From assembly GCA_016715795.1 (NCBI GenBank), contig JADJXP010000001.1:261705-325704 (forward strand): 64,000 bases of DNA. The letters are read 5' to 3'. Under the pieces are notes generated by a model. That model worked only from the letters and a program-made list of their open reading frames with translations. It did not search any database and had not been told where the DNA came from. Position 1 is the stretch's first letter. Each line of letters opens with the position of its first letter. The stretch comes from Chloracidobacterium sp. (GTDB taxonomy: Bacteria > Acidobacteriota > Blastocatellia > Pyrinomonadales > Pyrinomonadaceae). Both the position numbers and the translations under genes were made by a program. Below, piece after piece: positions 18,098 to 64,000 of the stretch.

Positions 18098-18153
18098 GCA
18101 ACGGGCGACAAGTCGGTTCGCAGGCCGCAAGCCGCGTGATCTTCTACTGCCTA

Positions 18154-18183: not shown

Positions 18184-18207
18184 TTTCGCCACCGCCACCC
18201 CAAAACC

Positions 18208-18268: not shown

Positions 18269-18286
18269 AAAGAACCGTGCCGGCTC

Positions 18287-20377
18287 CTAAAGGTCTATGA
18301 TCGTCTCGTCACCCGCAATGCTGCGGACCTTTAGTCGCAGAGGTTTCTTCTTGGAGGCGATCTTGCCGTCCCAGAAGTCTTTTGTTTTTTTGCCGTCGAG
18401 GATAACGAAGCTGTTCTTATCTATCTTTATCTCTGAGTCGGACTTCCACGAGGCTTCTTTGTTGGTGCAGTCGAGCGATACCATCTCGATAAGTTCGAGG
18501 CCGTTGTCGCTGATCTCGATCTTTGTAAAACCGCCTTCTGGCTCTTCTTCGACTTCTCCGACCTCGGCAACTTCAACCAGCAGATGGCGTTTCTTTTGCA
18601 TCTGAAGCTCGCGTTTCTGGTTGTATTCGTCGATCTTTTGCATCAGGCGGTCTGAGACAAAGCTCGTGAACTCAACCTCATAGCCGTCTTTAGTCTTTCG
18701 CAGTTCATATTCCGCTATGTCGTTGAGAACAATGTTGTCGAGGACCTCTTTCAGGTCGCGAAGTTCGATCGTGATATCGAGATCATTCTGCTTTGCGATG
18801 AACTCTTCGAGGGCAGACCGGTCATCGATATCGATATAATAGACGACCACCTTTCGGACGCCGTCGGGCAGGTCGGGCATAGCTTCGACAATGATGCGGT
18901 TCATCGTCACGTTATCGAGAACCTTTGTCGAATGGTCAAGCAGGTTCGGCACATATACCGGTATCATGCCCAGCTTGCTGTCTTCGATCGCCCCTTCCCA
19001 AAAACTGTCGAGCTTGTCTTCATTACGCAAACCGTGGATAAGTTCCTTTAGCTTATCCATAGTCTGCGCCGGATTGCGGAATAACGAAACGCCGTCTTGG
19101 ATGTCAAGGACAGTGAAATCGGCGTTTCGTTCCAGTAGCCCGTCGCGCGCGGTTTGAATTGAATTTGTGCCGGTATCCACATGAATAAACGACCGACCAA
19201 GATCATCGGCGACTTTTGAAGCAACGCCGCTTCCCCCAAAAAAGTCAGCAACGACCGTCTTGCGCCCATCCTCGCGTATTTCATTGGACGATGCTTTTAC
19301 AATGCGTTCGACTAATTCCGGAGGTTTCTGTGTGGCGTAGCCGGTTCTTTCTGGATGGTTACCGCGAAGAAATGGGATATCGCTCCAAACGTCGCTCAAT
19401 GCTTGCCCGTCCTCAATTATCTCGTCGAGATAACGCTTGTACGGCTCTTGGCCAGTGGCTTGTCCGCGCGTTTCCCAAACCCATTCTTTACCATCCTCAT
19501 CTTTATGAATCTTCCGCCGGAGAGATTTGATTCGAGCGTCTCGGTCATGTTCGATCGCAACCGCCGACATATCAATCCGCTTATCGACGGCCAAGCCATA
19601 TAGGAACAATGTGTCATGTTTCGCATTAAACTTATTGGAAATGTGCATCTCTCGTCCGGGATAATGCCATACGATCTCATTCATAAAGTTATCTTCACCA
19701 AAAACCTCATCCATCAATATCTTCACATAATGTCCAATATGCCAATCTAAATGAACGTAGATACTCGCCGTTTCGCTCATTACGGAGCGGATCGCGACGA
19801 GGTTTTCGTACATCCAGTTTAGGTATTGTTCCTTATGCCAGATGTCACCATACATCTTTTCTTCAAACGCCTTTAGTTCGTCGTCCTCAAGTTCCTCGCC
19901 TGCGGCCAACGCCTCGGCAATCTTTGGGTTTTTCCGCAGGTATATCTTTTTTGCGTAATCGGCTCCGCTCGCAAACGGCGGATCGATATAAACGAGATCG
20001 ACCTTTATCCCCTGATCCTTGAGATATGCACAAGCCGAGACGCATTCGCCGCGAATGACCAGATTATCGCCGCCGCCGTTTACCTTTTCGATCTCTTCGA
20101 CTTCATACAGCGGCATCCCGCGACGGATTCGCTCCTCGACCTTATCGGCATCGCGATAGGCAAGCATGCGCCTCGTGCGGACAAAGTTATTCAGTATCGC
20201 CTGTCCGTCGATGGTATTAGGAAAATAGGGAACGTACTTTATGGGCATATTGTCATGAATTGCCTCCAGCTTTAGCTGGAGGTCAGCGGGCAGAATGGTT
20301 CGGGCTTTAGCCCAACGTTTTTGGCTAAAGCCCAGAAACTTCTTTTCAAACAATCCACGCTCTAAAGTGCGTGGCAA
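18287..20377 (-). CDS. mod: N6/N4 DNA methyltransferase, Type III Mod-like (beta-class motif order)
   Basis: Motif IV DPPF (VDLVYIDPPFASGADY) comes before motif I FxGxG (ADFFGGSGVASKV), with a long region between them that is a candidate target-recognition domain. The composition is K/N/I/E/D-rich and AT-richer than the flanks. Confidence 0.85.
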   Translation of the reverse strand: MPRTLERGLFEKKFLGFSQKRWAKARTILPADLQLKLEAIHDNMPIKYVPYFPNTIDGQAILNNFVRTRRMLAYRDADKVEERIRRGMPLYEVEEIEKVNGGGDNLVIRGECVSACAYLKDQGIKVDLVYIDPPFASGADYAKKIYLRKNPKIAEALAAGEELEDDELKAFEEKMYGDIWHKEQYLNWMYENLVAIRSVMSETASIYVHLDWHIGHYVKILMDEVFGEDNFMNEIVWHYPGREMHISNKFNAKHDTLFLYGLAVDKRIDMSAVAIEHDRDARIKSLRRKIHKDEDGKEWVWETRGQATGQEPYKRYLDEIIEDGQALSDVWSDIPFLRGNHPERTGYATQKPPELVERIVKASSNEIREDGRKTVVADFFGGSGVASKVADDLGRSFIHVDTGTNSIQTARDGLLERNADFTVLDIQDGVSLFRNPAQTMDKLKELIHGLRNEDKLDSFWEGAIEDSKLGMIPVYVPNLLDHSTKVLDNVTMNRIIVEAMPDLPDGVRKVVVYYIDIDDRSALEEFIAKQNDLDITIELRDLKEVLDNIVLNDIAEYELRKTKDGYEVEFTSFVSDRLMQKIDEYNQKRELQMQKKRHLLVEVAEVGEVEEEPEGGFTKIEISDNGLELIEMVSLDCTNKEASWKSDSEIKIDKNSFVILDGKKTKDFWDGKIASKKKPLRLKVRSIAGDETIIDL

Positions 20378-23272: not shown

Positions 23273-23315
23273 TAGGGAATTTAACTAGGGCATTATACAA
23301 CCGAACGCCCTTTAA

Positions 23316-23520
23316 CGAACAACGAACAATGAACAGTGAACCCTGAATGGAAGTGGAGAACGGGGAAATGGGTTGTGGGGAATCGAGAATTGGGAATGAG
23401 GACAAGGGTGACATCAACGGATAACGGATAGTGAATAACGGACAGTTGCGGAGAGGGACAAGGGAGAGACGCGGAGAGGTGGGGCCGGGAAATGAGAAGT
23501 GAGAAATGAGAATTGAAAAA
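23316..23520. repeat. ~210-nt degenerate heptanucleotide-periodic tract
   Basis: The sequence parses into about 30 consecutive 7-mers: CGAACAA CGAACAA TGAACAG TGAACCC TGAATGG ... TCAACGG ATAACGG ATAGTGA ATAACGG ... AATGAGA AGTGAGA AATGAGA ATTGAAA. Confidence 0.8.
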
Positions 23521-23533
23521 GACGTGGGGCAGA

Positions 23534-23599
23534 TTTTGTCGATACAGTGCGGTGTTTTTGTCGATACAAAACGATAAAAGCGGGCCTTTTGTCGATACA
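23534..23599 (+). promoter_or_regulatory. Three direct copies of TTTTGTCGATACA (candidate protein-binding sites)
   Basis: Exact 13-mers at 23534-23546, 23556-23568 and 23587-23599. The start-to-start spacings are 22 and 31 nt, roughly 2 and 3 helical turns. Confidence 0.45.
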
Positions 23600-23732
23600 G
23601 AAAATGGCAAAATGGACCTTCAGCCGATCGGGCATTTACTTTCGACCGACCAGGGGTGTTTGGCGTGGACAGAGGGCAAAAACGGCGGACAGTGACCGGC
23701 GAATTTGCTCCGTGTCGTTTTTTCTATGTTAA

Positions 23733-23760
23733 CCGTTCACCATTCACCGTTCACCACTGA
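23733..23760. repeat. Heptad word tract inverted relative to 23327-23350
   Basis: CCGTTCA CCATTCA CCGTTCA CCACTGA. Its reverse complement (TGAACGG TGAATGG TGAACGG) matches the word family TGAACAG TGAACCC TGAATGG at 23327-23350. Confidence 0.7.
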
Positions 23761-23928
23761 CAAAGCAACCTCGCAAAACGGCGCAGAATCATAGAGGCAA
23801 GTCATTATTCGGCTTTGAAATGCACCCTCTGTTGGGTATCCTAATAGTTCGCTTTTTGGGGCGGCGGCAGATGTGGCTTTTCGAGGCCTTTTGCGTGCCC
23901 TGCGGGCGGGCGGTCCAAGCGGTTTTGT

Positions 23929-38496: not shown

Positions 38497-38523
38497 CTGT
38501 TGCTTGCGTTCTCTCGACTGCGG

Positions 38524-39033
38524 CTAGCCGATGAACATTTCCTCTTCCTCGTAAACGCGGTCGATCTGTTTGGGTGCGGGGGCAAACAGGACCTCGAGGC
38601 CTTTTTTAACGCCGGCCATGATGGCGGCGATCTCGCGGGCGGGCACGACGATCTTTTGTTGGACAAATTGCGTTGTATCGAGCACCTCGGCGTGCGTGCG
38701 GTCGATCGAGCGGCTGACCATAGCGACCTTGTCCTTGGCGGTGACGGCGGTGTCGCTGACGAGCATTTTTAATTCGGCGACCTCTTCTTTAATAAGCTGG
38801 GTCGACTCGGCGAGGTGTTTGGTCGCCGTAGAGAGGTTGGCCGAGACCTCGGTAAAGTGCACCGACATCTCGCGTCCCTGCGCGCTTATCAGATCGATCT
38901 TATAGAGCAGCGGTTCGACGCGTTCCTCGACATTCTTGACGGTCGCGACGACCTTTCGCACCGTGAGCGCGATCCACAGCAACGCGATTGCCATGAAGAT
39001 AAAGCACACGGCAATCACGATCGACGAGACCAT
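38524..39033 (-). CDS. DUF948-like membrane-anchored coiled-coil protein
   Basis: The likely start is MVSSIVIAVCFIFMAIALLWIALTV (39033), which avoids overlap with the upstream gene. It has a single N-terminal TM helix followed by a helical region. Confidence 0.6.
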   Translation of the reverse strand: MVSSIVIAVCFIFMAIALLWIALTVRKVVATVKNVEERVEPLLYKIDLISAQGREMSVHFTEVSANLSTATKHLAESTQLIKEEVAELKMLVSDTAVTAKDKVAMVSRSIDRTHAEVLDTTQFVQQKIVVPAREIAAIMAGVKKGLEVLFAPAPKQIDRVYEEEEMFIG

Positions 39034-39064
39034 TTGCCAGGATTGTGGGTCGCTGGTATTCACG

Positions 39065-39523
39065 TTAAGACTTGTCTTCCTTGGCGTCCTCGACGGTGTA
39101 GGTCGGGCGGCCGTCGGTGATGCCTTTCGACTCGTTCTTACGCTTTTCGGCGGTGTAGGCATCCTTGCCGGCCTCGATAGCGGCAGTGAAAGGATTTGCC
39201 GTGCGGGCCGCGGCAGCCTTTGCCTTGTCGGCTATCTCCTCGGCCTTGTCACCGGCAGCAGCGTAAAGCTCGCCGGCCTTTTCCTTTGATACCTCGTAGT
39301 ATTCGCCGGCTTTCTCGCCGATCTGAGCGGCAGCCTCTTTGCCCTTCTCGATGCCCTTGCGCGTTGCGTCGGCTATGTCTCCCCGAAGCTCCTCGCCCGA
39401 TTTCGGTGCAAAAAGTAGCGCGAGGATCGCGCCGATGCCGCCGCCAATCAGCAAATACGTTAACTTCGTCGAAGCCCCTGATTCTTCCCTGTCGTAATTT
39501 CGTCCCATAGTTTCCTCCCGCAC
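39065..39523 (-). CDS. YtxH-domain protein
   Basis: LIGGGIGAILALLFAPKSGEELRGDIAD is the YtxH signature. The rest is rich in A/K/E helices. Confidence 0.7.
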   Translation of the reverse strand: MREETMGRNYDREESGASTKLTYLLIGGGIGAILALLFAPKSGEELRGDIADATRKGIEKGKEAAAQIGEKAGEYYEVSKEKAGELYAAAGDKAEEIADKAKAAAARTANPFTAAIEAGKDAYTAEKRKNESKGITDGRPTYTVEDAKEDKS

Positions 39524-39652
39524 AAATTCGTGTGCGAATGAGCGTAAAACATCACTCGGCTATAGGTTCACTATAGCAAATGCGCTGTGAGCGCAGCAAA
39601 GGATTATTTAATCGATGGCGATTTGTTACAATCACAGTTTGTCTTTTTGGCT

Positions 39653-41458
39653 ATGAACCGCGACCGCATCAGGAATTTTTCGATCATTGCCCACATCGAT
39701 CATGGCAAATCGACGCTGGCCGACCGCATATTGCAGTTGACAGGTGCGGTATCCGAACGTGAGATGGAGGATCAGTTACTCGACGACATGGACCTCGAAC
39801 GCGAGCGCGGTATCACCATCAAGGCCCACGCCGTCAGGCTCGATTACAAGGCAAAGGACGGCAAGGATTACGTTCTCAACCTGATCGATACGCCGGGGCA
39901 TGTGGATTTTTCGTATGAGGTTTCGCGTTCGCTGTCGGCGTGCGAGGGTGCTTTGTTGGTGGTCGATGCCTCGCAGGGCGTCGAGGCACAGACGCTGGCG
40001 AATACGTATCTCGCCATCGAGAACGACCTTGAGTTGGTCCCTGTATTAAATAAGATCGACCTGCCGTCTGCCGAGCCAGACCGCATCAAGGAACAGATCG
40101 AGACGATCATCGGCCTCGATACGACGCACACAGTGCTCGCCTCCGCCAAGACTGGCGAAGGCGTCGGTGACATTATCGAGGAGCTGATCAAGGACATCCC
40201 GCCGCCTGAGGGCGACGCTACGGCGCCGCTGAAGGCGTTGATATTCGACAGTTGGTACGATTCGTATCGCGGCGTGATCGTGCTGTTTCGCGTGATCGAC
40301 GGTGTGATAAAGAAGGGCATGAAGCTGCGCTTCTTTAATACCGGCCGCGAGTATCTGGTTGAAACGATTGGAGTTAACCGTCCAAAGGCGACGCCGATCA
40401 CCGAGCTTGGACCCGGCGAGGTGGGCTTTCTTACCGCGTCGATCAAGACCGTTGCAGACGTTCAGATCGGCGACACGATCACGGACGCCGCAAGGCCCGC
40501 GAGCGAACCGCTGCCCGGATTCCAGGAAGTCAAGCCGATGGTGTTTGCCGGGCTGTACCCGACCGATTCGGCGCAATACGAGGATCTGCGCGACGCGATG
40601 GACAAGCTCCGGCTTAACGACGCGTCGTTCTTTTACGAGCCGGAATCGTCGACGGCGTTGGGCTTCGGGTTCCGCTGCGGCTTTCTCGGGCTGCTCCATA
40701 TGGAGATCATTCAGGAGCGGCTTGAGCGAGAGTTCAATCTGGAATTGATCACGACGGCGCCGGGCGTTCGTTACCGCGTGACGACGACCGACAACGCCGT
40801 TCACGAGATCGACAGTCCGTCGCAGATGCCCGAGCCGGGCCGCATTTTGAAGATCGAGGAACCGTATATCGAGGCGACGATCCTGACGAATGACGAGTTT
40901 CTCGGCGGTATTCTGCCGTTGCTCGATGAGAAGCGCGGTGTGCAGAAGAGGTTTGAGTACGTGACCAAGGACCGCGTGATGCTAGTCTATGAGCTGCCGT
41001 TGAACGAGATCGTGCTAGATTTTTACGACCGGTTAAAGAGCGTCTCGCGCGGCTACGCGTCACTCGATTATCACCTGTCCGGCTACAGTGAATCGAAGCT
41101 CGTCAAGCTCGACATTCTCGTATCGGGCGAGCCGGTGGACGCCTTATCCCTTATTCTGCATACAGATACGGCCGCGGCAAAAGGCCGCCTACTAACCGCG
41201 AAGATGAAAGAACTCATCCCGAGGCAGCTATTCGAAGTTCCCATCCAGGCAGCGATCGGCAACAAGGTCATCGCCCGCGAGACCGTCAAGGCCATGGGCA
41301 AAAACGTCATCGCTAAATGCTACGGCGGCGACATCTCGCGCAAACGCAAGCTGCTCGAAAAGCAAAAAGAAGGCAAAAAGCGAATGAAAAAGGTCGGACG
41401 TGTGGAGATACCGCAGGAGGCATTCCTCGCGGTGCTAAAGGTGAATGAAGGATCATGA
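39653..41458 (+). CDS. lepA: Elongation factor 4 (LepA)
   Basis: [25 protein letters not shown]...DTPGHVDF...NKID, and the C-terminal LepA-specific domain ending in ...[12 protein letters not shown]. The start is taken at 39653. Confidence 0.95.
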
Positions 41459-43099
41459 CGCGCTCGCGTAAACCGAGGCGTCGATCTCGCTGAAGATGTT
41501 GTCTCGTGATTCGATCTCGGTAAGAAGTTCATCATCAACCTGACCTGAGTCCAGCATCTTCGCCAGCATATCGAACCGCTGAATGTGCGATTGGAATCGG
41601 CGTGACGAGTATTGCACGGTGGTGCCTTGATATATCTGGAATGCCCAGTCCGACGATTGGGCGAGCAGGAGTTCGCGGGCGGCCTGATTCAAAAGCCGAG
41701 TTCCAGATTCCAAGTCCCAGATTCCAGATTCTTTGTTCGAAATTTGAAATCTGGAATCTGAAATTTGAAATTGCTTCGCGAGTTCGGTCATTCGCCGTTC
41801 CGCGTCGTGCTGATACGGGTACATCCACGAATTTCCTTCGTTTATCCAAACTTTGTAATAGCCGCTCTCGCCCCAGCTTGAGGCGGTCGGGCGTTGTTCC
41901 TGGATCGATAGGCCGGCGTCGAGAAAATCGCCGGGCGTGACGCACGCGATCTCGTCCTGGTCGAAGTGCATCTTCTTGAAGAAGAAGTCGAGAAACTGTG
42001 GCCCCTCATACCACCAATGGCCGTAAAGCTCTGCATCATAGGGGCTTATGACTAGCGGCGGATGGCCTTCAAACGTCTCACGTAGCTGGTGTGCCTGCTT
42101 GATGCGCTCATTGATAAAGTTCGATGCGTTTTCAGCCGCCTTGTCGCGCGCAAGCGCGGGAATGTACGGCTCCTTGCGGTTTTGCGGCACGTCGCGGCCT
42201 GTGATGCGGTGGTATTTCAGGCCGAGGTGGCGGCGTTCGCCGGACGAGTGCAGGTGCGGTTTGACGTATTCGTAATCCGCGTCCCAGCCGATGTCACGGT
42301 AGAACTCGCGATACAGGGCGTTGCCCGGATAGCCGATCTCGGCCGACCAGACCTGCTGGCTCGTCTCGACGTCGCGGGCAAATACGGCGACGCCGTTCGG
42401 AGTGACAACCGGAGCGTGAACGCCATAACGCGGCCTCGGATCGCCGTAAAGGATCGCGTGCGTGTCGGAGATGAAGTATTCGATGCCGGCATCTTTTAAC
42501 AGGTCCTCGACGCCCGGCTCGTACGCACACTCGGCGAGCCAGATGCCGCGGGGCTGGCGGCCGAAGTGCTTTTTGTAATTCGTGACCGCGATCTCGACCT
42601 GCGCACGCCGCGATTCGCGGGTCGAGATGAGCGGCAAAAAGCCGTGCGTCGCGCAGCAGGTGATGACCTCGACGACGCCCTCGTCCTGCAGTTCGCGGAA
42701 TGCGTTGACGAGATTGCGTTTGTAGCGGTTGTTCCACAGCTCGAGCGAGGCGGTCAGGTTATCGACGTACATCTTTGCGACGTCGTGAAAGTTGGCGGCC
42801 TCGTTTCGCGTGCGGTGTTCCTCTTTGTGGGCGAGATCGATGAGGTTTTCGAGGTGGCGTGTGTAACGTTCCTGCAGCAGCGGGTCGGCGAGCATTTCAC
42901 ACAGCGGCGGCGAGACGTTCATGGCAAGCCGCGGCGACGCACCGGCCTCGTGCAGCGATTGAAAAATGAAAATTAGCGGAAGATAGACCTCGGTTATCGC
43001 CTCGTAGAGCCAGTCTTCCTCAAGGAATTCGGGATATTCGGGATGCCGGACAAACGGCAGATGGGCGTGGAGGATGAGGCTGAAATAACCGAGCGGCAT
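41453..43099 (-). CDS. GH57-family glycoside hydrolase (1,4-alpha-glucan branching enzyme type, with DUF1957-like C-terminus)
   Basis: The N-terminus [35 protein letters not shown] is characteristic of GH57 branching enzymes. Confidence 0.85.
41696..41775. repeat. Heptad-word palindrome inside the GH57 coding sequence
   Basis: cagattccagatt (41718-41730) is the exact reverse complement of aatctggaatctg (41748-41760). The arms are tandem 7-mers, (CCAGATT)n and (TGAAATY)n. Translated, the element gives ...[25 protein letters not shown]... Confidence 0.85.
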
Positions 43100-43115
43100 T
43101 GCAGGTATATTAAAA

Positions 43116-43175
43116 CAGGATGGCGAGGATAGACAGGATAAACTATTAAATCCTGTCTATCCTGTCTAATCTGTT
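43116..43175. terminator. Word-repeat hairpin downstream of the DUF4912 gene
   Basis: acaggatggcgaggatagacaggat (43116-43140) faces atcctgtctatcctgtctaatctgt (43151-43175). The inner 13 nt pair perfectly. The arms are tandem 9-nt words (AGGATAGAC / ATCCTGTCT). Confidence 0.55.
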
Positions 43176-43183
43176 TGAAGAAA

Positions 43184-44413
43184 CTAGCCGACCGAGTGTG
43201 AACTGACCGGATTATATCGTGCCGACGTTACTCGTCGCGTTTTCAGCGTTTTGGGGAAATGCACGAGGCTCACGCCGTAGACCGCGGCTGAGAATTCCTC
43301 CTCGGTCCATTCGGCCTCGTCGATGTCGAAATGTTCCTTAAGTGCGACCTGCGCTTTGGCAGCTGTCAGCTTACCAACATTTGCCTGTAGAATCGCGAAT
43401 AACGCAGGGCCGACGCGCCATCGAATCTCCTCCAGCGTAAAGCCGCTTGCGAGGGCAAGCATCGCGTAGCGAATGTCATCGGCGGCGATGCCGTCGAGGG
43501 CATATTCACTCGTGCCGATGAATTTTGAGAACGCGATCTGCGAAGCGTTATCGGCCGTGATCGGATCGTCACCTGCCATAGCAACATCAAAGGCGTCGCG
43601 CGAAAATCCCGACACATCAAGCACCTCGGCAAATTTCGTGGCCGAAACTGTCCACCGCGAATCTGTAGAAGGCCGCGGACTTGGGCTGCGGCGCGGCGTC
43701 GCGATCGAGTTGGAGTACATGACTCTAAAATAAGGTCGATTCACCGCATAGAACCCGATCTCGGCCCGGTATTCGCCATCAGGCTCGACTGCGAACCACC
43801 AGTTACCCGTGCTGTCACAAGGGTTGATCTCTTCAGTCTCGCGCTTGAGGTCAACCAGTTTTACAACCAGGGCGTAACTGCCGAGATCATCACCGAATAT
43901 TCGTTTCAGCTGATGCCATGGGTTGTCCTTCAGCGACCAATAAAAATAGAGCCGCGTTGGCGACTGCATTAGCAGCCGTGCACGATTCTCGCGATCAAGT
44001 TCAGGAAGGGAAACGTCTGAAAGGGCCTTAAACGCCGGTGAAAGTTCAACTTCCGGTTCCACCGAAACAAGCTCGGATGTGAGTTCGAGATCAGCCTTTG
44101 CTCGCTTCGCCGCTTTCTTCCGGACCGGTTTTGTACTGGCCATCTTAGGGCCATCCGCAGTCGATTGGCCCGTCCCTTCCGCCTTTTTCCTCCTCGACGC
44201 TTTTTTTACCTGCGATGTCGCAACGGCAACCTCTGCGAAGGCGTCTGCCGAAGGCTCAGTCGTCTTCTTCGAGGAGCGAGTGTTCCGCTTCCTAACGACT
44301 TTCGGCGGCATCGCTGATCCGACAACACGTGGATCGACAACGTCTGCGAACGGATCGGTTACGGTCGTTCTCTGCTTAGGTACCTTCCTTTTTGTAACTC
44401 CCTCTTTTGCCAC
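43184..44413 (-). CDS. DUF4912-like protein with basic, disordered N-terminus
   Basis: Core sequence LLMQSPTRLYFYWSLKDNPWHQLKRIFGDD...WWFAVEPDGEYRAEIGFY resembles DUF4912. It lies immediately upstream of the GH57 gene on the same strand. Confidence 0.55.
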   Translation of the reverse strand: MAKEGVTKRKVPKQRTTVTDPFADVVDPRVVGSAMPPKVVRKRNTRSSKKTTEPSADAFAEVAVATSQVKKASRRKKAEGTGQSTADGPKMASTKPVRKKAAKRAKADLELTSELVSVEPEVELSPAFKALSDVSLPELDRENRARLLMQSPTRLYFYWSLKDNPWHQLKRIFGDDLGSYALVVKLVDLKRETEEINPCDSTGNWWFAVEPDGEYRAEIGFYAVNRPYFRVMYSNSIATPRRSPSPRPSTDSRWTVSATKFAEVLDVSGFSRDAFDVAMAGDDPITADNASQIAFSKFIGTSEYALDGIAADDIRYAMLALASGFTLEEIRWRVGPALFAILQANVGKLTAAKAQVALKEHFDIDEAEWTEEEFSAAVYGVSLVHFPKTLKTRRVTSARYNPVSSHSVG

Positions 44414-44418
44414 GTCAT

Positions 44419-44438
44419 TAAAAAGCGGTCAAAACCGC
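44419..44438 (-). terminator. Weak rho-independent terminator
   Basis: On the minus strand: GCGGT-TTTG-ACCGC followed by a T5 run, downstream of the 44515..45396 gene. Confidence 0.3.
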
Positions 44439-44514
44439 AAACAATTAGTATGCGGCTTTTCTGACCGGCTGACAAGGTGAGCACGTTGGCAGAGGTGGGC
44501 AGATGTGGCGAGGT

Positions 44515-45396
44515 TCAATCTTTCTTGTATGACTCGAGCTTAATGTTTACCTTGCCGAACTGAGTGGTGACCTCAGCTCGGACAGGAACATGCCGTGGAT
44601 CATCCGTCAACCAAATGACCATTTTGCCCTTTTGCTCGATCAGGCGTCCGGGGCCGAATATGTCAGGCTCGACACGTAGGCAGGTGACCTTGCCGAATGT
44701 CGCAGTTGGTTGGCGCTCACGCTTTGTCACGGCAAATGGGACGCTGTATACAAGGCCCGAATCACTGACGTCAAACCTGCCTCGCGTACCGACATCGAGC
44801 GGCATCAAGCGCACTGCGTAGATAGCGGAGACCATGTCCAGAACGTCGGGAGCGATCTCTGACGCAATTCGGCGTGGCGGCCGCGTCGCATCCTTAGGGT
44901 CGGTCTCGACATACGTGACGCTGCGAGCCCCGTAGTCGAATACCGCCTCGCTGTCGCGGACCCGCTGTTTCTGGACGTCGTGTTTTGTCGTTTTCAGTAT
45001 TCGGAAATCACCCATCGACAACAGCGATTCGTACTCCTGAACAAAGCTGAAACGGAGCAATTTCAAGAGGGTGCCCTGCGAAACAGCCTCGCCGCGAATG
45101 ACCAGCCGCCCGGTATCGGGTTGCGCGGTCGTCTTGAACACAAGGTCAGCGATAGACCAGCCGATCTTGAGTCGGCTGAGTTTCCCATCATATGTCAGTG
45201 TCTCGCCAACAAACATCTGCCCCGACCCACGACCCGTTTGGGCCAAGGGCTGAGCATGTGCATCCACACCGGCAATAATCAGGAGCGCGGCAAGGACAAA
45301 ACCCAAGCGAAGCACTTTCGGAACCGGTTTACGACAAGACATATGCCTTAACAGCGAGCAAGGCGAAAGCGAGGGCCGCACCAATAGCCGCCTCAT
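44515..45396 (-). CDS. Exported protein, DUF3108-like
   Basis: Signal peptide (LAALLIIAGVDAHAQ). The pattern is beta-rich (GETLTYDGKLSRLKIGWSIADLVFK...). The family assignment is from memory only. The start may be MSCRK at 45342. Confidence 0.45.
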   Translation of the reverse strand: MRRLLVRPSLSPCSLLRHMSCRKPVPKVLRLGFVLAALLIIAGVDAHAQPLAQTGRGSGQMFVGETLTYDGKLSRLKIGWSIADLVFKTTAQPDTGRLVIRGEAVSQGTLLKLLRFSFVQEYESLLSMGDFRILKTTKHDVQKQRVRDSEAVFDYGARSVTYVETDPKDATRPPRRIASEIAPDVLDMVSAIYAVRLMPLDVGTRGRFDVSDSGLVYSVPFAVTKRERQPTATFGKVTCLRVEPDIFGPGRLIEQKGKMVIWLTDDPRHVPVRAEVTTQFGKVNIKLESYKKD

Positions 45397-47061: not shown

Positions 47062-50000
47062 ATGAAAGGCATTGTCAAGGCAACGTTCAAAAACAGCTAT
47101 GGGGTCGCCGCAATTGCCCTGTTTACAGTGCTTTCGGCATCAGCCCTTGCCGCTTCAACAAACACCATGCCGAGCGCCATGTCGCTCGAGGCGATCACCT
47201 CATTCCTCGGCCTCACCGCGCCCGATCTCTCGTCCGAAGCCCCATCTGCATGCACGACCCCCAGCTTTGGGACCGCGACGGTCTATGGTCCGGCTCCGAA
47301 CGCGATCGGCGAGGTCGTAGCGGATTTCAACAACGACGGGAATCCTGACGTTGCCGCATCGTTGCTCAATGCGAGCTCCGTCGCTCTTTTTCTCGGGAAC
47401 GGGAGTGGCGAGCTCGGATCGCCCACCACGTTTGCGGTTGCGAGCCAGGCGCGTTCTATGGTCACGGGTGACTTTAATCAGGACGGCAATGCGGACATAG
47501 CAACGGCAAACAACCATCCCTCGAATAGTGTTTCCGTCATATTGGGGAACGGAACCGGAGGTTTTGGGGCGGCGGCAAACTTTACCGCGGTCAACCCCGA
47601 TTCTATCACCGTGGTGGATCTTAACCTTGACGGCAAGGCCGATCTGGCCACCTTCGGCTCTAATACCATAAGTATACTGCTGGGAACTGGTACCGGAAGT
47701 TTTACGGTACAGTCTCCGTTCTTCCTGGGCGGTGGGATTGGTGGCATTGCATCGGGCGACATTAACCTGGACGGCAAGCCCGATCTGGTCACCGCAAATC
47801 AGGGATCTTCGGTCTCTCTGCTTTTGGGCAATGGCATGGGCGGATTCGGTGCGCCATCGCACACTTCGGTAGGTATCCCACTGACATCCGTCGCCATTGG
47901 TGACGTAAATCTCGACAACAAACCGGACTTGGTCGCGGGCAGCATAGGAAATAATCTGTTCGTCCTGATCGGCAACGGCGTCGGTGGATTCACGGCCGGC
48001 CCTAATGTACAGGTGGGATTCGCGCAGACGTCAGTAACCCTAAACGACTTCAACGGCGACGGAAAACTCGATCTGGCTGCGACCGGGAACCTTGATGACG
48101 CCATTGCTGTAGCGTTCGGCAATGGGAATGGCAGTTTCGGTACATCAGCCAGTTTCGGGACCGGCAGAGACAATCCGCTGACCGTCGTTGCAGGCGACCT
48201 CAACGGTGACCGTAGGCCGGACCTCGCGGCGACGAATTATACATCTGGGAACATTTCCGTTTTGCTCAATACGTGTGCCGCCGCTACGCCGACGCCGACG
48301 CCATCGCCAAGCTGCCCGCCGGCCGGTTCGCTTGATACGACGTTTGACGGTGATGGCAAGGTCACTACGTCATTTGGCAACATTGACCGCGGAGCAGGGC
48401 TCGCTCTTCAAGGTGACAGCCGCATCGTGACCGTTGGCTCAACCTGGAACGGGACCGACTATGATTTTGGACTGACACGTCATAATCCTGACGGCAGCCT
48501 CGACACGTCATTCGACTCTGACGGTAGGGTCGTCACTCAATTTAGTGGTGGCGCCGATCATGGAGATGCGGTAGCAATCCAGTCGGACGGCCGAATCGTT
48601 GTAGTGGGCATCGCGTCGTCGCCGGGATTTCATTTTGGCATAGCTCGTTACAATACTGACGGTAGCCTTGATACGTCCTTCAACGGGTCTGGGAAGGTCA
48701 TCACGGTGATCGGCAGCACGGATATCGCTTCATCTGTCGCCATTCAAGCTGACGGGAAGATAGTCGTCGGTGGTGGCTGTACCGATACAAACTACGATTT
48801 TTGCGTTGTACGCTACAACACGGATGGCTCGCTCGACACGACCTTTAACGGAACGGGAATCGTCCGGACACCGATAGGGCCCGCAGGCGAACTCATCCAA
48901 TCCATCGCGGTACAGTCCGATGGCAAGATAGTTGCGGCGGGTTACGTGCCGCGGACCCTGGCTGCCGGCGGCCCGATCGATTTTGGGGTTGTTCGATACA
49001 ACACGAACGGAACACTCGACACGACGTTTGGCGGAACTGGAAAAGTCGTTACGCCTATCGGCTTTTCCGCCGAGGCATATGGGCTCGGCATTCAGTCTGA
49101 TGGGAAGATCGTCGTCGGTGGGTCGAGCTCGAGCGGCTTAGGCATCGGTTCGGATTTTGCACTTGCACGCTATCACACCGATGGATCGTTGGACACGACA
49201 CTCAACGGAACCGGTACTGTGGTGACGCCGATAGGTCCGGGCTCGGAACGGGACATTGCGTACGATCTGGCCATCCAGCCCGACGGTAAGATAGTTCTGG
49301 TCGGTGACGTCTCTGACATCGTGTCAGCGTCAGACTTTGCTGTTGCGAGATATCTGCCGAACGGTTCCCTGGATACGTCGTTTAATGGAACCGGAAAAGT
49401 CATAACACCGATCCAGACCGTCAACGACATCGCGTACGGTGTCGCCATCCAATCCGACGGCCGGATCGTTGTCAGCGGGATGACATCGACCGGACTGGAT
49501 GACGATTTCGCGTTGGTCAGGTACAACGGTTCGTCGTCTTGCGCGTCGCCGACACCGACGCAAACACCGACCCCAACGCCAAGTCCGAGCCCGACGTGCC
49601 AGCCTGCCCCGAGCGGCATGTTCGCTTGGTATAAGGGCGAAGGGAATGCGAATGACAGCGCTGGAGCGAGTCACGGTACTCTCCAGAACGGGACGGCATT
49701 TACCGCGGGGCAAGTTGGACAGGCGTTTAGTTTTGACGGTGTGGACGACCAGGTGGTCGTGCCTCATGCGGCAAATCAAAATGCCGGGAGCAATATCTCG
49801 ATCGCGGCGTGGATCAAGCAAGACACACTCGGGCACGGACGTTCGATCGCGCAAAAGCGCACTTCCGGCAACGTCGGAGGGTACGTGTTCGAAACGGTGC
49901 ATTCACCGTTCGGCGCTGACGGATCACTACAGTGGGTGATCATGATCGGCGGGGTTTACCAGCACCTTCAAACGCCGGCGAATGTCCTGCAAACGGGTGT

Positions 50001-53000
50001 GTGGCAGCACGTTGCTGCGACCTACGACGGCTCGTTCATGAAGGTATATGTTGACGGCGTAGAGGTTGCGAGCCGCGCCCAAACCGGTACTGTTGACAAT
50101 TCGACCGAGCCGATCGTTTTGGGCCGGAATGTTGTGTTTCCCGTCAACGCATTTGACGGCAATATCGACGAGCTGCAGTTCTATAACCGCGGTTTGACGG
50201 CGGGCGAGGTTGCGGGGATCCACGCTTCGGGTACCAGTGGAGTATGCGGCAGCAACTGCCTGCCGGGCTCGGCGACGTACAACGATACTTTTACTAATGG
50301 CCTCGATCCGGCGTATTGGTCGGTCATCCAGACTACGCCGGGATTGTTCTCGGTCGATACTACGCAGGGCGACGTGCGGCTTGCCAAGACTGCGATGAAC
50401 AGCCCAGGCGGGCAGCAGAATGTAGCCGTGCAGTTGAATCTGGCGGCATTGGGCGGACAGATCAGCGGCGATTTTTCAACACAGGTCGATTTTCGTAATG
50501 CCGTGATCGGCCCCGCGATCGACCAGGTCGAACTGCACACGACATTTGCCAACAACTCATTTATGTTCGACGTGTATGACAATGCCTGCGCAAATCCGAA
50601 CGTCCACGTCTGGAACGGCTCATTGCAGGGCTGCACGCCGACGGCCGCTACGGGCGGGACATTCAAGATCTCGCGCGTCGGATCGACGCTCAGCGGCTAT
50701 TTCAACAACAACCTGATATTCTCGCAAAGCAGCTCATCACCGCTAACGCGGCTCGAATTCCTGCTCCAGCTTCAGCCCGGGTCGAACGACATGACCTCGG
50801 TAGCGTTCGATAATTTCTCGCTCACCGGCGGTTCGTGCGGATGCCCGATCACCTCGCCCGACAACAAGATCAGCTGGTGGCGCGGTGAGGGCAACCCCAG
50901 CGACAGCGTAGGTACGAACAACGGAACTCTTGTCGGCGGAACGACATATACCACTGGAAAAGTCGGGCAGGCATTCAACCTCAACGGAACGAATGCCGGT
51001 GTCACGATACCGCACAACACAGATCTCAACATCAACCCCGGTGGATTCTCAGCCGAGTTCTGGATGAAGTCGAACGGCCCACAGGGCGGACAAGCTCTGG
51101 TAATGGATAAATCTCACGGTTTTGTCGATTCCGCAGGCTGGGCGTTTCAATCGACGAGTGGAGCATCGGATCGCATAGCGTTCTTCATCGGCGCGGGCGG
51201 CGGCGGTGCAAGCAACTTTATCGGCGTTGGTTCGAATGTAAATCCCTTCGACGGCAATTTTCACCACGTCGCCGGAACGTGGGACGGCTCGGCTGTTCGA
51301 CTATACATTGACGGCATACTGCAGGGAACGACCCCGTTCGCGTCGCCCGTGAATAACACACGGGCCGTCAATATCGGATACGCGTGGGGAGGCGGTTCAA
51401 ACACCCGATGGTTCAACGGGATCGTTGACGAAGCCGCGATCTACGGCCGCGCGTTAACCCAAGCTGAAATATTTGCTGCGGCTGGCGTGTGCCCGACGGG
51501 ACAGTGTGCCGGTGGGTGGCCCCTTGGCGAATGGCAGCAGGGGACCAATGGCCATTACTACTCCGTTCAGGAGATCACGGGGGGCACCTATAGCTGGCTC
51601 GCCGCTCGCAGCCAGGCTCGGACTCTAACTGCCCCTAACGGTGCCCGCGTTGATCTGGCGGCTCTCACGACAGAGGCTGAAAATACCTTCGTATTCAATG
51701 GGATCAACTGCCCAACCTACTGGGCGATAGACACGGCGAACAATAATGAAGGCCCGAATACAGGCGGCTATCAGTATGACAAGCTCTCTGAACCGGGTGG
51801 ACATTGGGCCTGGGTAACCGGTGAGCCGTTCACCTACACAGCCTGGTCGCCCGGTGAGCCAAATAACTCTGGTGGAACCGAGGACATATCCTCCTTCTTC
51901 GCTCCGGGCAATAACCGGGCTGCTACCTGGAATGACATCGGCTTAGGGTCACCTTCGATCGTCCATTACTACATTGCTGAGTCCGTCGCACCGCAAACGT
52001 GCGCGACCCCGCCGCCGTCCATGGTCTCGTGGTGGCCCGGGAACGGGAACGCGAACGACGTTCAGGGTGGCCACACCGGCACGCTTCAAAACGGAGCGAC
52101 ATTTGCCGCGGGCTTTGTAAGTCAGGCTTTCTCTCTCGACGGGGCCGACGATCATGTGAGCGTGCCGGATGATCCTGCGTGGGCATTTGGGAGTAATGCC
52201 TTCACGATCGATGCGTGGGTGAAACTCGACGCGGTGAACGATTCGAATCCGATCCTCGCCAGCAACACAGGCAGCGGCCCACTGAACAAATGGATATTCG
52301 GCCTTACGAGCAACCGCCTGAACTTTCACATCAACAGTCCGTCGATCGGGGATCCGGGCATTAACGTTCAGTCATCTGAGTTGCTCATCGCTCCGAACAC
52401 TTGGTATCACGTTGCGGTAACGAGGTCCGGTGCGACGTATATCTTCTACGTCGACGGAGTGCCTATCTCATCCGCCACGCAAGGAGCAAACATTCCTGAT
52501 GCTGCGGCACCGCTTACGATCGGTTATAACGGCGAGACGACGGGTGGCGGTTCAGCCAGATACCTTGATGGCCTGATCGATGAGGTGGAGATCTTCAACC
52601 GAGCCATCTCTCCGCAGGAGCTAGCGTCGATCGTCATTGCCGGCCCCTCGGGCAAGTGCCTGCCCGCCGGCCCGACACCCACACCGACACCTTCAGCGAC
52701 ACCGACGCCAACACCGACGCCAACTCCTACGCCGATGCCGACGCCAACACCAACACCGACACCAACGCCTACTCCGACGCCGACTCCTACGCCGACTCCT
52801 ACGCCGACACCTTCACCGACGCCGACTCCAACGCCGACTCCTACGCCGACTCCTACGCCGACACCTTCACCGACGCCGGAGCATCGTGTGGCATTCGATT
52901 ACGACGGCGACGGGCGTGCGGACGTGTCGGTATTCAGGCCATCGGAGACGTTCTGGTATCTGGAGCAATCGGCGGCGGGATTCAAGGCAATGCAATGGGG

Positions 53001-53724
53001 ACTTGCTACCGACAAGATCGCCCCCGCCGATTATGACGGCGACGGTAAGACCGACGTTGCAGTTTATCGCCCCGATGAAGGTATCTGGTACGTGCTCCGC
53101 AGTTCTGACGGCACATTCCAGATCGTGAAGTTTGGCCTGCCCGACGACCTGCCGACTCCGGCTGACTTCAACGGCGACGGCGTCGCTGATATTGCGGTGT
53201 TCCGCGCGGCCGATGGGATCTGGTGGATCGAGTACAGCAGTTCTAACAACGATGGCCGCAGTGAGGGCGCGATCGAATTCGGACAACCCGGCGACGTGCC
53301 GGCCGTTGCAGATTACGACGGCGACGGAACAGCCGACATAGGGATATTCCGTCCGTCAGACGGCGTCTGGTACATGTTGCAGTCGACCGAAGGCCTGCTC
53401 GGCCTCAAATTCGGCCAGGATGGCGACCTGCCGACCCAAGGCGATTACAACGGGGACCGCCGTGCTGATGTAGCGGTCTATCGGCCATCAACGACGTATT
53501 GGTATATCGATGATCCGGTGATCGATTATTACTTCTTTAAGTGGGGCCTCCCGGGCGATATCCCCGTCCCCGCAGACTACGATGGCGACACGGTGAACGA
53601 TATATCTGTGTTCCGGCCCGATGGCGGCATCTGGTTCATCCGTAGCAGCATCGACGGCTCATTCACGATCACGCGGTTCGGTAAGGACGGCGATATTCCG
53701 ACGCCGAGTGCATTCATCCGATAA
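47062..53724 (+). CDS. Giant secreted multidomain protein (FG-GAP repeats, ~60-aa beta-propeller repeats, three LamG-like modules, C-type lectin-like domain, PT linker, FG-GAP/VCBS-like tail)
   Basis: - Signal peptide.
- N-terminal repeats (D)(F/L)N(G/L)DGxxDL.
- About 10 repeats of RYNxDGSLDTxFxGxGKV.
- Three modules beginning W(Y/W)xGEGNxxD...G(Q/K)(V/A)GQAFxF(D/N)G.
- C-type lectin-like segment with GEPNN and WND.
- (PT)n linker.
- About eight C-terminal repeats DYDGDGxxDxxVYRP...WY. Confidence 0.85.
52675..52880. repeat. Pro-Thr linker-encoding tandem repeat with a ~48-bp internal duplication
   Basis: (ACN CCN)n run. actcctacgccgactcctacgccgacaccttcaccgacgccg occurs twice in tandem (about 52786-52830 and 52834-52878). 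Confidence 0.8.
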
Positions 53725-58237: not shown

Positions 58238-61200
58238 CTAGTTGTTCGTGGCCCCCGTGTCGATCGCGACAAAGTCGAGATCGGCGACGTTATCGGTCAG
58301 CGACAACACCTGTGTCGGAACAGCAAAGATGTACCGCCTCGAATTGACCGTCACCATGTAGGTCTGGCCGGTCTGCAGGCCTTCGAAGTTGTAGTATCCA
58401 AAGCTGCCCGTCTGGACCCTCATCGGCTCCGTCAGAGTGCCGCCAGAGATCACCACCTCAGCATTCCGGATGCCGTGGCCTCCGGCCGTTAGGACGCGAC
58501 CTGAAACGGACGCGTTCGCTGCCGTCGATGCCAGGAACTCGATGCCCCAGCCGCCGTTGAGGCAGCCTGTCACGACCTCAGGATTACCCAAAGGTGTTCC
58601 CGCATCGTCACGAACATAGAGGTTCCATACACCGTTGGCATTCGTCAGGCCAAAGTTGCCGAAGAACGTCTGTGTTCCCGTTCCGCCAACCGTGCTGCCG
58701 GGCTCGTTATACGGCCCTGCCGGAGCGGCACCCGGGAAGTTGGTCACAGGCGTCTCCCAGTTCGTCGGCTCGAAGTTGCCCGTTGTGAGCGGCCCTGAGT
58801 TGGGCAGCACACCAGGCCCTGCGTCACGGAGGCTAAGCGTTACAGTGTTATTGCTCGGTATCGCTATTGCTCCGCCCGCATCGCCCATCAGCACATACTT
58901 CTGGCCTCCCGGGCCGACCAATAGTACATCGAGATTGTCGGGCAGTACGTGCTCCAGATCATAGAGTGTCACACGCATATTGCCGATCTGGACAGGCCCA
59001 CCGGCGACGGGGATCGGTGCCGGATAAACATCAGCCGCACCGCCGAGGTTGCTGCATATGGCCCCTGTGAAGCGGAACGCAGTTGCCGTGTCATTAATAT
59101 TAAGCACGGCATTCTGCACCTCAGGTGCCAGCGTCCCCCATCCTGTAAGGGTGAGGTTAACCGTCTCCGTCGGTTCCGACAAGAGATCGGCGAAGATCGG
59201 CACATTGACCGTCTTCAGCGTCTCGTTCGGGTTGAATGTGACGTTAGTGGTTACATTCTGATAGTCGAGGCCCGGTCCGGGAGCGGCCCCGCCCGTCGCA
59301 GTCCCATTCGACGTGGTGAACGTCACCGTGTTAGTACCAGAAAGGTCACCGCTACGTGCTATACCGATCACAGCCGTCTGTGACTCGTCTTCAGTATACG
59401 GGTTCTGGACGAACGTGATACTGAATGGAGCCGGCGTCGGCGTTACCGACGGTGTTGGTGTCGGTATCGGCGACGGTGTTGGAGTTGGCGTCGGTGTCGG
59501 AGTCGGTGTCGGTGTCGGAGTCGCCGGCGGAGGTGTCGGCGTCGGCGACGCGGTCGGGCATGGGCCCGACAACAGTTCGACCGTACTGAGAGCCGTCGTC
59601 GACGTGGTTAGACCGTCAACAACCATCACTCGGCCATCCGGCAAGGTGCCTTGTGCGTGTCCCGCACGGGCAGCGCCCAGGGTCGGCCCCACAGCAAACG
59701 TACCGCTGCTAATCGTGAAGATGTGCGTGGTAGCACTCGGAGCGAAGCTGCCGTTCGCTCCATCTGTGATCAGCAGTTGTCCCGAGCCCAGAGGCGAAAT
59801 GCCGCCGTAATTGCCACGGGCCCCGACAGTGCCGGCCGAACCTAGATTGGTCCACGAGTTCGCGACCGGGTCGTAACGAAGCAGCGTATCGGTCGCAGTG
59901 TTGAACGCGGGTCCTAGCAAGCCGCCGTAAACATAGACGAACCCGCCCGAGGCCGTGGCATAGAGGTTAGTTCGCAGGTCAGGCAACGTTGCTCCGGTAC
60001 TCCACGAGTCGGTGGCAATGTCATAGATTAATGTTGTATTCACCGCATTGTTGAAGTCATCGCCGCCTATGACATAAAACTTGCCCCCGACGACCGCCCC
60101 TGCAGCTGCCTCCCTGAAAGCAGGAAGATTCGCGCCGCTCGACCATGTGTCGGTAGCAATGTCGTATATCCTAAGCGTATTGACCACGCCCGCGGCGGTC
60201 GTGCCGCCCAGCCAACCGCCCGCGACATATATCTTGCCGCCGGCCGCTCCCAAAGCCGTCTGGCTAAGGCCAACCGGCAACGGAGCGACATTGCTCCAGG
60301 TGTTCGTTACCGGGTCAAAGCGCGAGACCTGATTATATATGGTCAGATTATCGCCACTCGATCCACCAACCACATACAGCTTGTTGTCCGTGCCGAGCGC
60401 GGACTGGAGAGCATAGCGTGCCGGAGTCTGAGCCGGGCCTGCCTGCCATACGCCGGGCGTACAACTCGGTGAAGGTGAAGGCGGCGGTGTCGGCGTCGGT
60501 GTCGGTGTTGCCGGTGGAGGTGTCGGCGTCGGTGTCGGCGATGGCCCGCCGATCGGCGCGGCTACCGCACGAACAAACATCGACCGATAAGCCGTGAATG
60601 ACGACTGTATCGTTCCCCAGGCAGCCGGGCCTGACGAGGTATCGAACCGTGCATAGCCGCCCGCAAACCCGACAGGATTTCCTGTAGATTCATCCGAGGC
60701 TACAAACACGTTCGTCGTCATCGGTACATACCGCACTCCGAGATACACGCTTCCCGAACCAATATTCAGGTTCATCGGAGCAATATTCACAGTCTGCCAG
60801 ACCGGCACGCCGAGACCGCCCGGGATGCCCGTGGCCGTCGCGGCTATCGTGCCCAGCTGCGTTCCCGGTGCTCCGCCCGCTCCGTCGTCGTCGTATGCAA
60901 TCACGTTGAAGTTCAGCGTCGTCGGCGTGCCGGCGATCGTGATGAAGGCCACGCAAACTGACGTGAATGTCGACGGGTAACTTGATGGTGTAAACTTGTC
61001 CACCGCGTTGAACATCGTAATAGTCGATGGGTTGGCGCTGTAGCCATTCTCCATAGTTCCGTCATCGTGAATGATGATACCGGGCTGCGTGTTGCAATTT
61101 ACTCCCGGTCCCGGTGTTGGCGTCGGGCTCGGCGTCGAAGGCGGTGTCGGAGTCGGCGTAGGCCCACCGGCACCCGCCACGAGGCAGAGGTTCACGGCCG

Positions 61201-63865: not shown

Positions 63866-64000
63866 AATCTCGCTCCTTGTTTGGGTCAATTGCATTCGCT
63901 TGCCCCGCGACACCCGGGGGCAAAAGCGTAGAAAACTCACACTCAGGTCCTTTCTTCTTCTTCAAACTGCAAAGTTTAGAATGTTAATCCGTATCTTAAG

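Follow-up and report, generated by a model that had tools for sequence, protein, structure and literature searches.

A heptanucleotide-repeat hairpin carried in frame within a GH57 branching-enzyme gene of Chloracidobacterium

Introduction

How does a long hairpin built of tandem 7-nt units come to lie within an apparently intact housekeeping gene, and what preserves it there? The question is raised by a 64,000-nt stretch of the genome of Chloracidobacterium sp., a soil bacterium of the Pyrinomonadaceae (Acidobacteriota) (GenBank assembly GCA_016715795.1, contig JADJXP010000001.1, positions 261,705 to 325,704; hereafter the window). In the window, an imperfect heptad-repeat hairpin of ~70 nt (41696–41775, assigned to neither strand) is located in frame in the gene for a glycoside hydrolase family 57 (GH57) 1,4-alpha-glucan branching enzyme. 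We compared these 64 kb with 168 related loci, designated by L numbers, including flanks of up to 20 kb. The relatives keep the base pairing of this segment and not its peptide, and we therefore regard the hairpin as a nucleic-acid element carried in the gene, rather than as a terminator or a protein feature.

The hairpin and its host gene

The center of the hairpin is a perfect 13-bp core, in which the left half (CAGATTCCAGATT on the plus strand, 41718–41730) pairs with its exact reverse complement on the right (AATCTGGAATCTG, 41748–41760). On the coding (minus) strand, the 5' arm (41739–41772) is composed of the units CAATTTC, AAATTTC, AGATTCC, AGATTTC, and AAATTTC and encodes 12 residues, while the 3' arm (41701–41731) is composed of GAATCTG, GAATCTG, GGACTTG, GAATCTG, and GAAC and encodes 11. 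Tandem Repeats Finder (TRF) assigns a period of 7 to both arms, with 4.9 and 4.4 copies, respectively. The tandem 7-mer arms and the perfect core, as given in a preliminary description made from the letters of the window alone, are thus matched by the sequence and by TRF. An inverted-repeat search defines arms of 24 nt that are 83% complementary. The stem is AU-rich, consisting mostly of A-T and G-T pairs, and closes a loop of 15–17 nt. Folding of the coding strand as RNA gives −33.3 kcal/mol, compared with −22.9 ± 3.3 kcal/mol for dinucleotide shuffles (z = −3.2; 2 of 200 shuffles are as stable).

The core of the 3' arm is GGAAY, and the 5' arm is a derived form of the GTTCC-core heptad of the clade. 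Clade-wide, each unit joins two variable bases to a GTTCC/GGAAC core, which in this genome has drifted to ATTYC/GRAAT. A search of the 64 kb for the window's heptad word, allowing up to three mismatches, gives a single match.

An Rfam search of the window at the gathering threshold returned only two tRNAs, and no known RNA family is found at the hairpin. A −1 programmed frameshift signal has an X XXY YYZ slippery heptamer in the zero frame, 5–9 nt upstream of a stable structure. We rejected this candidate function, as the two AAATTTC units are read xAA ATT TCx and not A AAT TTC, and are placed inside the stem and not upstream of it.

The host gene (41453–43099, minus strand) is an open reading frame (ORF) of 548 codons, uninterrupted by any stop. 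Its product contains the Pfam domains Glyco_hydro_57 (PF03065, 1.2e-47) and BE_C (PF09210, 7.7e-31), which place it in the GH57 class, and has full-length matches to the PDB entries 2b5d (2.9e-147), 5wu7, 3n8t, and 3p0b. Glu190 of the WLAECAY motif (E190) and Asp355 of the DAELFGHWW-type motif (D355), which we take to be the nucleophile and the acid-base of GH57, are invariant in 67 homologues. The closest 120 proteins, annotated as Pyrinomonadaceae or Blastocatellia, share 77–85% identity and have 529–581 residues, their length differences being concentrated at the loop that contains the hairpin. As had been proposed, the element is read in frame on the minus strand without a stop, just upstream of a conserved segment, and the gene around it is apparently intact, with both domains and the catalytic motifs retained.

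The site of the insert

The hairpin occupies a hypervariable loop of the C-terminal domain (loop 1; 41681–41785, minus strand), which comprises 35 codons (E439–A473) between the WMYP...RMT and ARELL motifs. Loop lengths in 74+ loci indicate an ancestral size of 20 codons. This is the length found in all distant relatives and in several close ones, with ELANRFEHPNEMERRVLNQL-like sequences, and the loop of the window is likewise 14–15 residues longer than those of the PDB homologues 2b5d and 5wu7. Relative to the ancestral 20 residues, the 35-residue loop therefore represents a net gain of 15, with ~8 ancestral residues overwritten. The insertion of ~25 residues put forward earlier is in this way right about the presence of an extra segment compared with orthologues and too large as a net gain.

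In an AlphaFold2 model (mean predicted local distance difference test (pLDDT) score of 68, good in the C-terminal domain), the insert lies between helices 426–446 and 463–489. Residues 448–460 have pLDDT values below 50, so that this model, which is of moderate quality, predicts the inter-helix segment to be disordered and to offer a permissive surface position. Among 119 Pyrinomonadaceae GH57 genes, insertions or deletions of at least five residues are confined to loop 1 (45 sequences), a second loop of the C-terminal domain (~25), and the C-terminal tail; none is found in residues 1–440.

Conservation follows the pairing

Ten species have a loop 1 of exactly 105 nt, allowing a gapless alignment (the window, L161, L001, L162, L164, L166, L163, L165, L082, and L167). 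Each arm in these loops has five units, with the core GTTCC in the 5' arm or GGAAC in the 3' arm and two variable bases. When paired in the register i + j = 101, 76% of the cells of the alignment form base pairs, compared with at most 53% in slid controls. Of the 35 stem pairs, 18 have compensatory changes, with both sides altered (32 cells). At 0.277, the covariation score exceeds that of shuffled alignments (0.197 ± 0.019) and is reached by none of 500 shuffles. RNAalifold selects a register shifted by one unit (+7), in which 12 of 22 pairs are compensatory; the stem is therefore able to pair in more than one register.

The conservation of the hairpin tracks the 7-nt period and not the codon. 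Pairwise identities at the first, second, and third codon positions are 0.63/0.63/0.61 in the hairpin, compared with 0.86/0.92/0.53 in the rest of the gene, and the core columns of the hairpin alone give 0.73/0.74/0.74. Since 7 is not a multiple of 3, the frame in which a unit is read shifts from one unit to the next through all three. At the protein level, identity is 0.435 in the insert and 0.83 elsewhere in GH57. Elsewhere in the gene, fourfold-degenerate sites have a mean identity of 0.47, for a saturation expectation of 0.32, which corresponds to about one substitution per site.

The units also change together. Identity between units within a species is 0.69, compared with 0.64 for orthologous units between species, and this concerted effect peaks at unit positions 2 (0.81 versus 0.62) and 7 (0.53 versus 0.40). 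At position 2, A is present in essentially all units of the window and of L161 and is matched by T in the partner arm; L001, the closer relative, has G paired with C. Such all-unit changes point to homogenization among units and arms, through slippage or template switching, rather than to independent pairwise compensation.

Perfection of the palindrome is capped by the open reading frame through avoidance of stop codons. On the coding strand, the 13-bp core is followed by G, giving TGG (W461), where the perfect complement, A, would create an in-frame TGA; in L015, the stem is interrupted at the very position where a CTCTGAA would yield the codon TGA. It is because the reading frame limits the palindrome that the arms of the window have different words and form a weaker hairpin (−31 kcal/mol, compared with −52 kcal/mol in L001).

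The pairing has no bias toward the mRNA sense: the wobble positions comprise 22 G.U pairs and 39 A.C mismatches when read as mRNA, and the antisense strand often folds more stably. An RNA structure acting in the mRNA sense was rejected as a candidate on this account.

Age and fates of the element

The element is old, being common to at least ten species at identical length, with turnover inside it. An outer stem, CGCAGTYC...GRACTCGCG, is shared by all heptad alleles; together with the identical length of the ten alleles, it points to a single ancient event, after which the element turned over internally. To call the element inserted, as was done in the preliminary description, is too simple in view of this history. 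Its later fates comprise expansion to up to 43 residues, decay (L004, −17.5 kcal/mol), and replacement (L002, L003, and L007).

The 21-residue loop 1 of L005 (GCGTCGGAACTGCAAGTTCTTATT) keeps a mini-palindrome, GGAACT GCA AGTTC. It resembles a collapsed remnant of a heptad hairpin, suggesting deletion through the stem. We also considered growth in situ from an ancestral mini-palindrome, an idea prompted by 20-residue loops with a 5-bp TTCC/GGAA seed and quasi-heptads (L032, ...TTTCC GGGCGAAAT GGAAC...). As such seeds occur in some of these loops and are not general, it was left as an idea only.

A heptad-repeat class in the Pyrinomonadaceae

Hairpins of heptanucleotide repeats form a class that extends across the Pyrinomonadaceae and is almost always non-coding. 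In 1.34 Mb of loci together with the window, 121 arrays have a period of 7, compared with at most eight for any other period between 5 and 13. The overrepresentation persists in 1.68 Mb of Pyrinomonadaceae loci, where we count 161 period-7 arrays and at most 12 of each other period; 152 kb of distant loci contain two. Outside the GH57 loop, 89 of 130 arrays are hairpins, since they have an inverted partner within 150 nt. The words are diverse yet recurring (AAAGTTC, AAAATCC, AAATCCG, AAATTTC, ACTCATC, AAGTGAC, ACCACTG, and others), and different loci of one genome bear different words. In this census, GTTCC-type words are found in the GH57 loop only.

The comparison of arrays inside and outside coding sequence that had been called for places only ~6 of the 130 arrays within putative ORFs, although ORFs make up ~83% of the DNA. 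On inspection, the true in-frame cases are those in a second GH57 loop (L007 and L012) and in a terminase-like ORF of L078. According to the crude gene calls of the census, convergent spacers, which can hold only terminators, contain 8% of the arrays and 21% of the intergenic bases, while divergent, promoter-only spacers contain 14% and 17%, respectively, close to expectation.

Upstream of the GH57 gene itself, a heptad array lies within 150 nt of the ATG in 24 of 123 loci, often ending 0–8 nt before it. Heptad hairpins or arrays 0–90 nt upstream of this ATG are observed in L021, L022, L040, L049, L058, L083, L163, and others. Hairpins that end 0–8 nt before the start leave no room for a Shine–Dalgarno sequence. 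The class is therefore mostly non-coding and often near start codons, and the GH57 element is its exception.

The window contains further repeats that had been likened to the GH57 hairpin. The likeness holds insofar as the element belongs to the same repeat class as the intergenic hairpins of the lineage; it fails for the window's own repeats, where the word hairpins at gene 3' ends (6965–7034 and 43105–43184) have a period of 9 and not 7, and the other heptad arrays (17734–17769, 18143–18184, and 23312–23756) are direct arrays in 5' or divergent intergenic DNA. The hairpin at 43105–43184 (minus strand; inverted repeat, TRF period 9) fills the spacer between a DUF4912-type gene (stop at 43184) and the start of GH57 at 43099. 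Related genomes have heptad hairpins in the corresponding place.

Two of the direct arrays, 17734–17769 and 18143–18184, share one word and lie in a spacer of 585 nt (17702–18286), where they flank ~375 nt of GC-rich self-complementary DNA. A perfect 25-bp hairpin (18208–18268) is located just after the stop codon of the upstream gene; a permissive Rfam search of 17650–18300 gave only sub-threshold, microRNA-like matches to it. The divergent intergenic region 23273–23928 holds four heptad arrays of different words (starting at 23312, 23416, 23487, and 23727), the first and last being inverted ~400 nt apart, as well as three copies of TTTGTCGATACA (23536–23610).

Other in-frame palindromes and neighboring features

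In-frame palindromes are a general phenomenon in these genomes, being found in loop 1, in the second GH57 loop, and in an ATP-binding cassette (ABC) exporter. Loop 1 of relatives contains GC-rich hairpins unrelated to the heptad element, for example in L021 (−70.5 kcal/mol), L027, L016, L081, L045/L078, and others. Peptide families encoded by such palindromes ('SSPPYEGGVAA..ADGVVL', 'KSDA..VTLT', and 'PPAVAGG') recur in loop 1, in the second loop, and in other genes of different genomes.

The second loop corresponds to ~41540–41555 of the window (residues ~516–520). From an ancestral length of 16 residues, it is expanded in 25 of 112 loci, reaching up to 49 residues (examples are L007 10473–10506, L012 11563–11598, L161 6040–6060, and L011 2316–2364). 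The inserts are heptad arrays or belong to the GC-rich palindrome families of loop 1, and the CCACCTGCGGTAGCGGGTGG family is present here in L166, L168, L015, and L162.

The ABC exporter (MsbA/ABCB-like) is encoded by ORF 5016–6524 on the minus strand and has two GC-rich palindromic inserts, both in the nucleotide-binding domain and both inverted repeats. One (5434–5558, minus strand) consists of two inverted copies of CCACCTGCGGTAGCGGGTGG ('PPAVAGG'), adds ~36 residues after NIAFGV, and appears as a gap in the alignment with ABCB4. The other (5811–5894, minus strand) contributes ~36 residues between FSYAANGN and VLKDIDL, at a gap between query residues 205 and 242. In L078, a terminase-large-subunit-like ORF of 727 residues (12285–14469) has several in-frame repeat inserts, comprising AATCCGC heptads ('IRNPQSEI') and palindromes of the 'PPASAGGF'/'PPYEGG' families.

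Long arrays with periods of 6, 12, 18, and 54 are found at 52672–52878, 59432–59550, and 60480–60540. They are of the CCGACxCC type, GGTGTCGG on the other strand, and lie inside the giant ORFs 47062–53724 (plus strand) and 58238–63940 (minus strand), where they probably encode low-complexity repeats rich in Asp, Thr, and Pro.

Downstream of GH57, the plus-strand gene lepA (39587–41458) is convergent with it. The two stop codons overlap by 6 nt (41453–41458), and therefore no intergenic spacer exists between the genes. This overlapping convergence is seen only in the window and L001, while L002 has a gap of 466 nt. The hairpin is situated ~240 nt past the lepA stop codon.

Discussion

We favor, with a probability of about 0.55, the interpretation of the feature as passenger DNA, a hairpin of heptanucleotide simple sequence repeats (SSRs) that is tolerated in a disordered loop of GH57 and kept paired mainly by slippage and template switching. 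Such DNA would be selfish or neutral, with the protein merely tolerating 15 extra residues, and may have originated by insertion or by local expansion at loop 1. The hairpin shape would be kept mainly by replication slippage among the units and by template switching between the arms within the hairpin, while selection would do no more than remove frameshifts, stop codons, and possibly stems with mispairs; a role as a transcription terminator would have no part in it. Hairpins with multi-base compensatory changes can arise and be maintained through template switching (PMC8794818), and Mrazek and colleagues have proposed that polymerase slippage is biased toward 7 nt, as summarized in PMC4679880.

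Several points weigh against this interpretation. The GTTCC/GGAAC core has an identity of ~0.73 between species, third codon positions included, compared with 0.53 at neutral third positions; this hints at selection on sequence or structure and is not obviously expected from mutational homogenization alone. No slippage or template-switch event has been observed directly. In neighbor-joining trees of the very conserved GH57 protein, the hairpin alleles are interleaved with ancestral 20-residue alleles, which may imply several gains, several precise losses, or recombination; with the number of events not settled, we did not retain monophyly of the hairpin alleles. Beside this conflict stands the shared outer stem, which argues for one origin. 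Lastly, the gene calls of the census are crude, being based on ORFs and on G+C content at third codon positions (GC3).

The main rival to tolerated passenger DNA is selection on the structure itself. The hairpin would then be a cis-acting nucleic-acid element, such as an RNA processing, stability, or pause site, or a protein-binding site or cruciform in DNA, and selection on pairing would explain its persistence. This we consider possible, at clearly less than even odds. It would account for the strong covariation, for the conservation of the core, which exceeds the neutral level at every codon position, and for persistence over about one substitution per neutral site. The class, moreover, sits non-randomly by start codons and is depleted from convergent spacers, which suggests that its intergenic members are functional, and in Nostoc (bioRxiv 10.1101/2022.06.06.494920) and Beggiatoaceae (PMC4679880) a regulatory role is suspected for heptamer repeats close to start codons. 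However, the pairing carries no consistent strand signature, some close relatives have kept the gene while their hairpin decayed or was replaced, and many members of the clade keep the 20-residue loop. The unrelated palindromes of loop 1 fit tolerance better than a specific function, and concerted change of all units is not predicted by pairwise selection. A broader proposal, that heptad hairpins are functional lineage-specific cis-signals (for instance translation-initiation, mRNA-processing, or protein-binding modules at start codons) and that the GH57 copy is a selected regulatory structure within the mRNA or DNA, appears doubtful to us; if true, it would provide a conserved, covarying, structured element that overlaps housekeeping coding sequence in a free-living bacterium. 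Independent and repeated insertion at loop 1 of a mobile palindromic element, similar to MITEs (miniature transposable elements with inverted repeats), repetitive extragenic palindromic (REP) sequences, or Rickettsia palindromic elements (RPEs), seems unlikely. The GC-rich palindrome families are clearly dispersed across loops, genes, and genomes, the trees intermix hairpin alleles with ancestral ones, and the word GAAATYTG is also intergenic in L080 and L166, all of which would suit mobility. Against it, the length and boundaries are exactly the same in ten species, GTTCC-type words are restricted to the GH57 loop, different loci of one genome have different words, and neither a target-site duplication nor a transposase was identified; a multi-copy element within the window is ruled out by the single copy of the window word.

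The preliminary description had termed the repeat terminator-like, a characterization that did not survive the analysis. An intragenic intrinsic terminator, possibly bidirectional, could halt read-through from lepA, which has no spacer before GH57, and the position of the hairpin beyond the overlapping lepA stop would agree with this, as would L001, with the same arrangement and a strong hairpin, and L002, with its spacer and without the heptad hairpin. Nevertheless, a consensus scan calls the hairpin on neither strand, and it is absent from the 11 terminator-like sites in 38500–45000. There is no conserved T-run, the trailing CTTTTG being Leu codons that vary among orthologues, and at eight other loci with the hairpin, the genes downstream are co-directional or unrelated. 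The GC-rich stem, short loop, and U-run of an intrinsic terminator are thus missing, as are a gene-3'-end location and an enrichment in convergent spacers, where the class is in fact underrepresented by our crude gene calls. A terminator serving the convergent lepA was rejected, given an arrangement confined to the window and L001 and a hairpin without terminator features, and we judge intragenic termination highly improbable. Hardly any credence, finally, is due to a protein-level role of the inserted peptide, for example as a surface loop that modulates oligomerization or substrate binding. The frame has long been kept open and the insert is on the surface of domain C, but its amino-acid identity is about half that found elsewhere in the protein, its conservation is blind to codon position, and the segment is predicted to be disordered; the peptides of relatives differ completely, and many relatives are without any insert.

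With this hairpin, the known range of 'protein-coding palindromes', classically those of Rickettsia, extends to the abundant free-living Acidobacteriota of soil and to tandem-heptad hairpins. The locus represents an unusually clean natural experiment, in which a single stretch of 105 nt is under constraint as coding sequence and as a stem at once, and in which period-7 conservation overrides period 3. It can serve to test whether selection, or else template switching and slippage, makes hairpins persist. Such inserts also inflate protein-length variation, create spurious 'hypothetical' peptides, and can mislead predictors of terminators and non-coding RNA in these genomes.

Comparison with known systems

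One of the two closest parallels is with RPEs, the 'protein-coding palindromes' of Ogata et al. (2000, 2002), as they are summarized in PMC10969869. In both cases, palindromic repeat DNA lies in frame in unrelated housekeeping genes, contributes a peptide where the fold can accommodate it, leaves the host gene intact, and comes in several families that recur in one lineage. The GH57 element, palindromic DNA in frame within a conserved ORF and absent from orthologues, resembles RPEs in these respects. RPEs are described in that summary as dispersed families of ~100–150 bp with a conserved peptide and are regarded as mobile, whereas the GH57 element comprises ~70 nt of tandem 7-nt units. Unlike RPEs, its word is locus-specific and single copy in the window, it evolves in concert, and it is conserved at the nucleotide level only. 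Within the 64-kb window, it is not one of many dispersed copies that share a sequence or peptide, as members of the co-resident GC-rich families are. The hosts differ as well, RPEs residing in a reduced intracellular genome and the GH57 element in a free-living soil acidobacterium.

The second parallel is with bacterial heptamer SSRs, which in cyanobacteria were called STRRs in the older literature. The Pyrinomonadaceae class shares with them tandem 7-nt units in 3–8 copies, many words, a strongly non-coding distribution, frequent positions directly 5' of start codons, and occasional ORF-internal copies where the word is free of stops. The heptads upstream of GH57 are reminiscent of the TAACTGA repeats of Beggiatoaceae (PMC4679880) and of the heptamer repeats near start codons in Nostoc (bioRxiv 10.1101/2022.06.06.494920). 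Heptads are the commonest class of long SSRs, attributed to polymerase slippage by Mrazek and colleagues, according to the account in PMC4679880. A literature search found no paper linking heptanucleotide repeats with Pyrinomonadaceae, Blastocatellia, or Chloracidobacterium, and no description for Acidobacteriota. An ancient, length-conserved, covarying copy in a conserved enzyme is not described for the cyanobacterial or Beggiatoaceae repeats. Bacterial heptamer SSRs are, in addition, described as direct arrays (169 direct sets and one inverted in Beggiatoa), whereas about two thirds of those in Pyrinomonadaceae are inverted pairs that form long hairpins.

REP sequences and bacterial interspersed mosaic elements (BIMEs; PMC3333891) are likewise short imperfect palindromes that form stem-loops and are abundant in intergenic DNA. 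REPs, however, are single palindromes of 20–40 nt with a conserved head, form genome-wide families associated with RAYT (a Y1 transposase), and are extragenic by definition, while the arms of the GH57 element are internally repetitive with a period of 7, no consensus is common to the loci, and no RAYT was identified in the 64 kb and the flanks of up to 20 kb. With rho-independent terminators, the element shares a stem-loop in the transcript, and the two period-9 hairpins of the window lie just after stop codons; the AU-rich stem, the loop of 15–17 nt, and the lack of a U-tract set the GH57 hairpin apart. Hairpins produced by template switching (PMC8794818; PMC5453318) offer a likeness in process, with one-step copying of several bases between arms, perfect stems, and apparent compensation without selection. 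They have been described for rRNA, other non-coding RNAs, and human mutation clusters, and the tandem heptads of GH57 would need slippage in addition to template switching.

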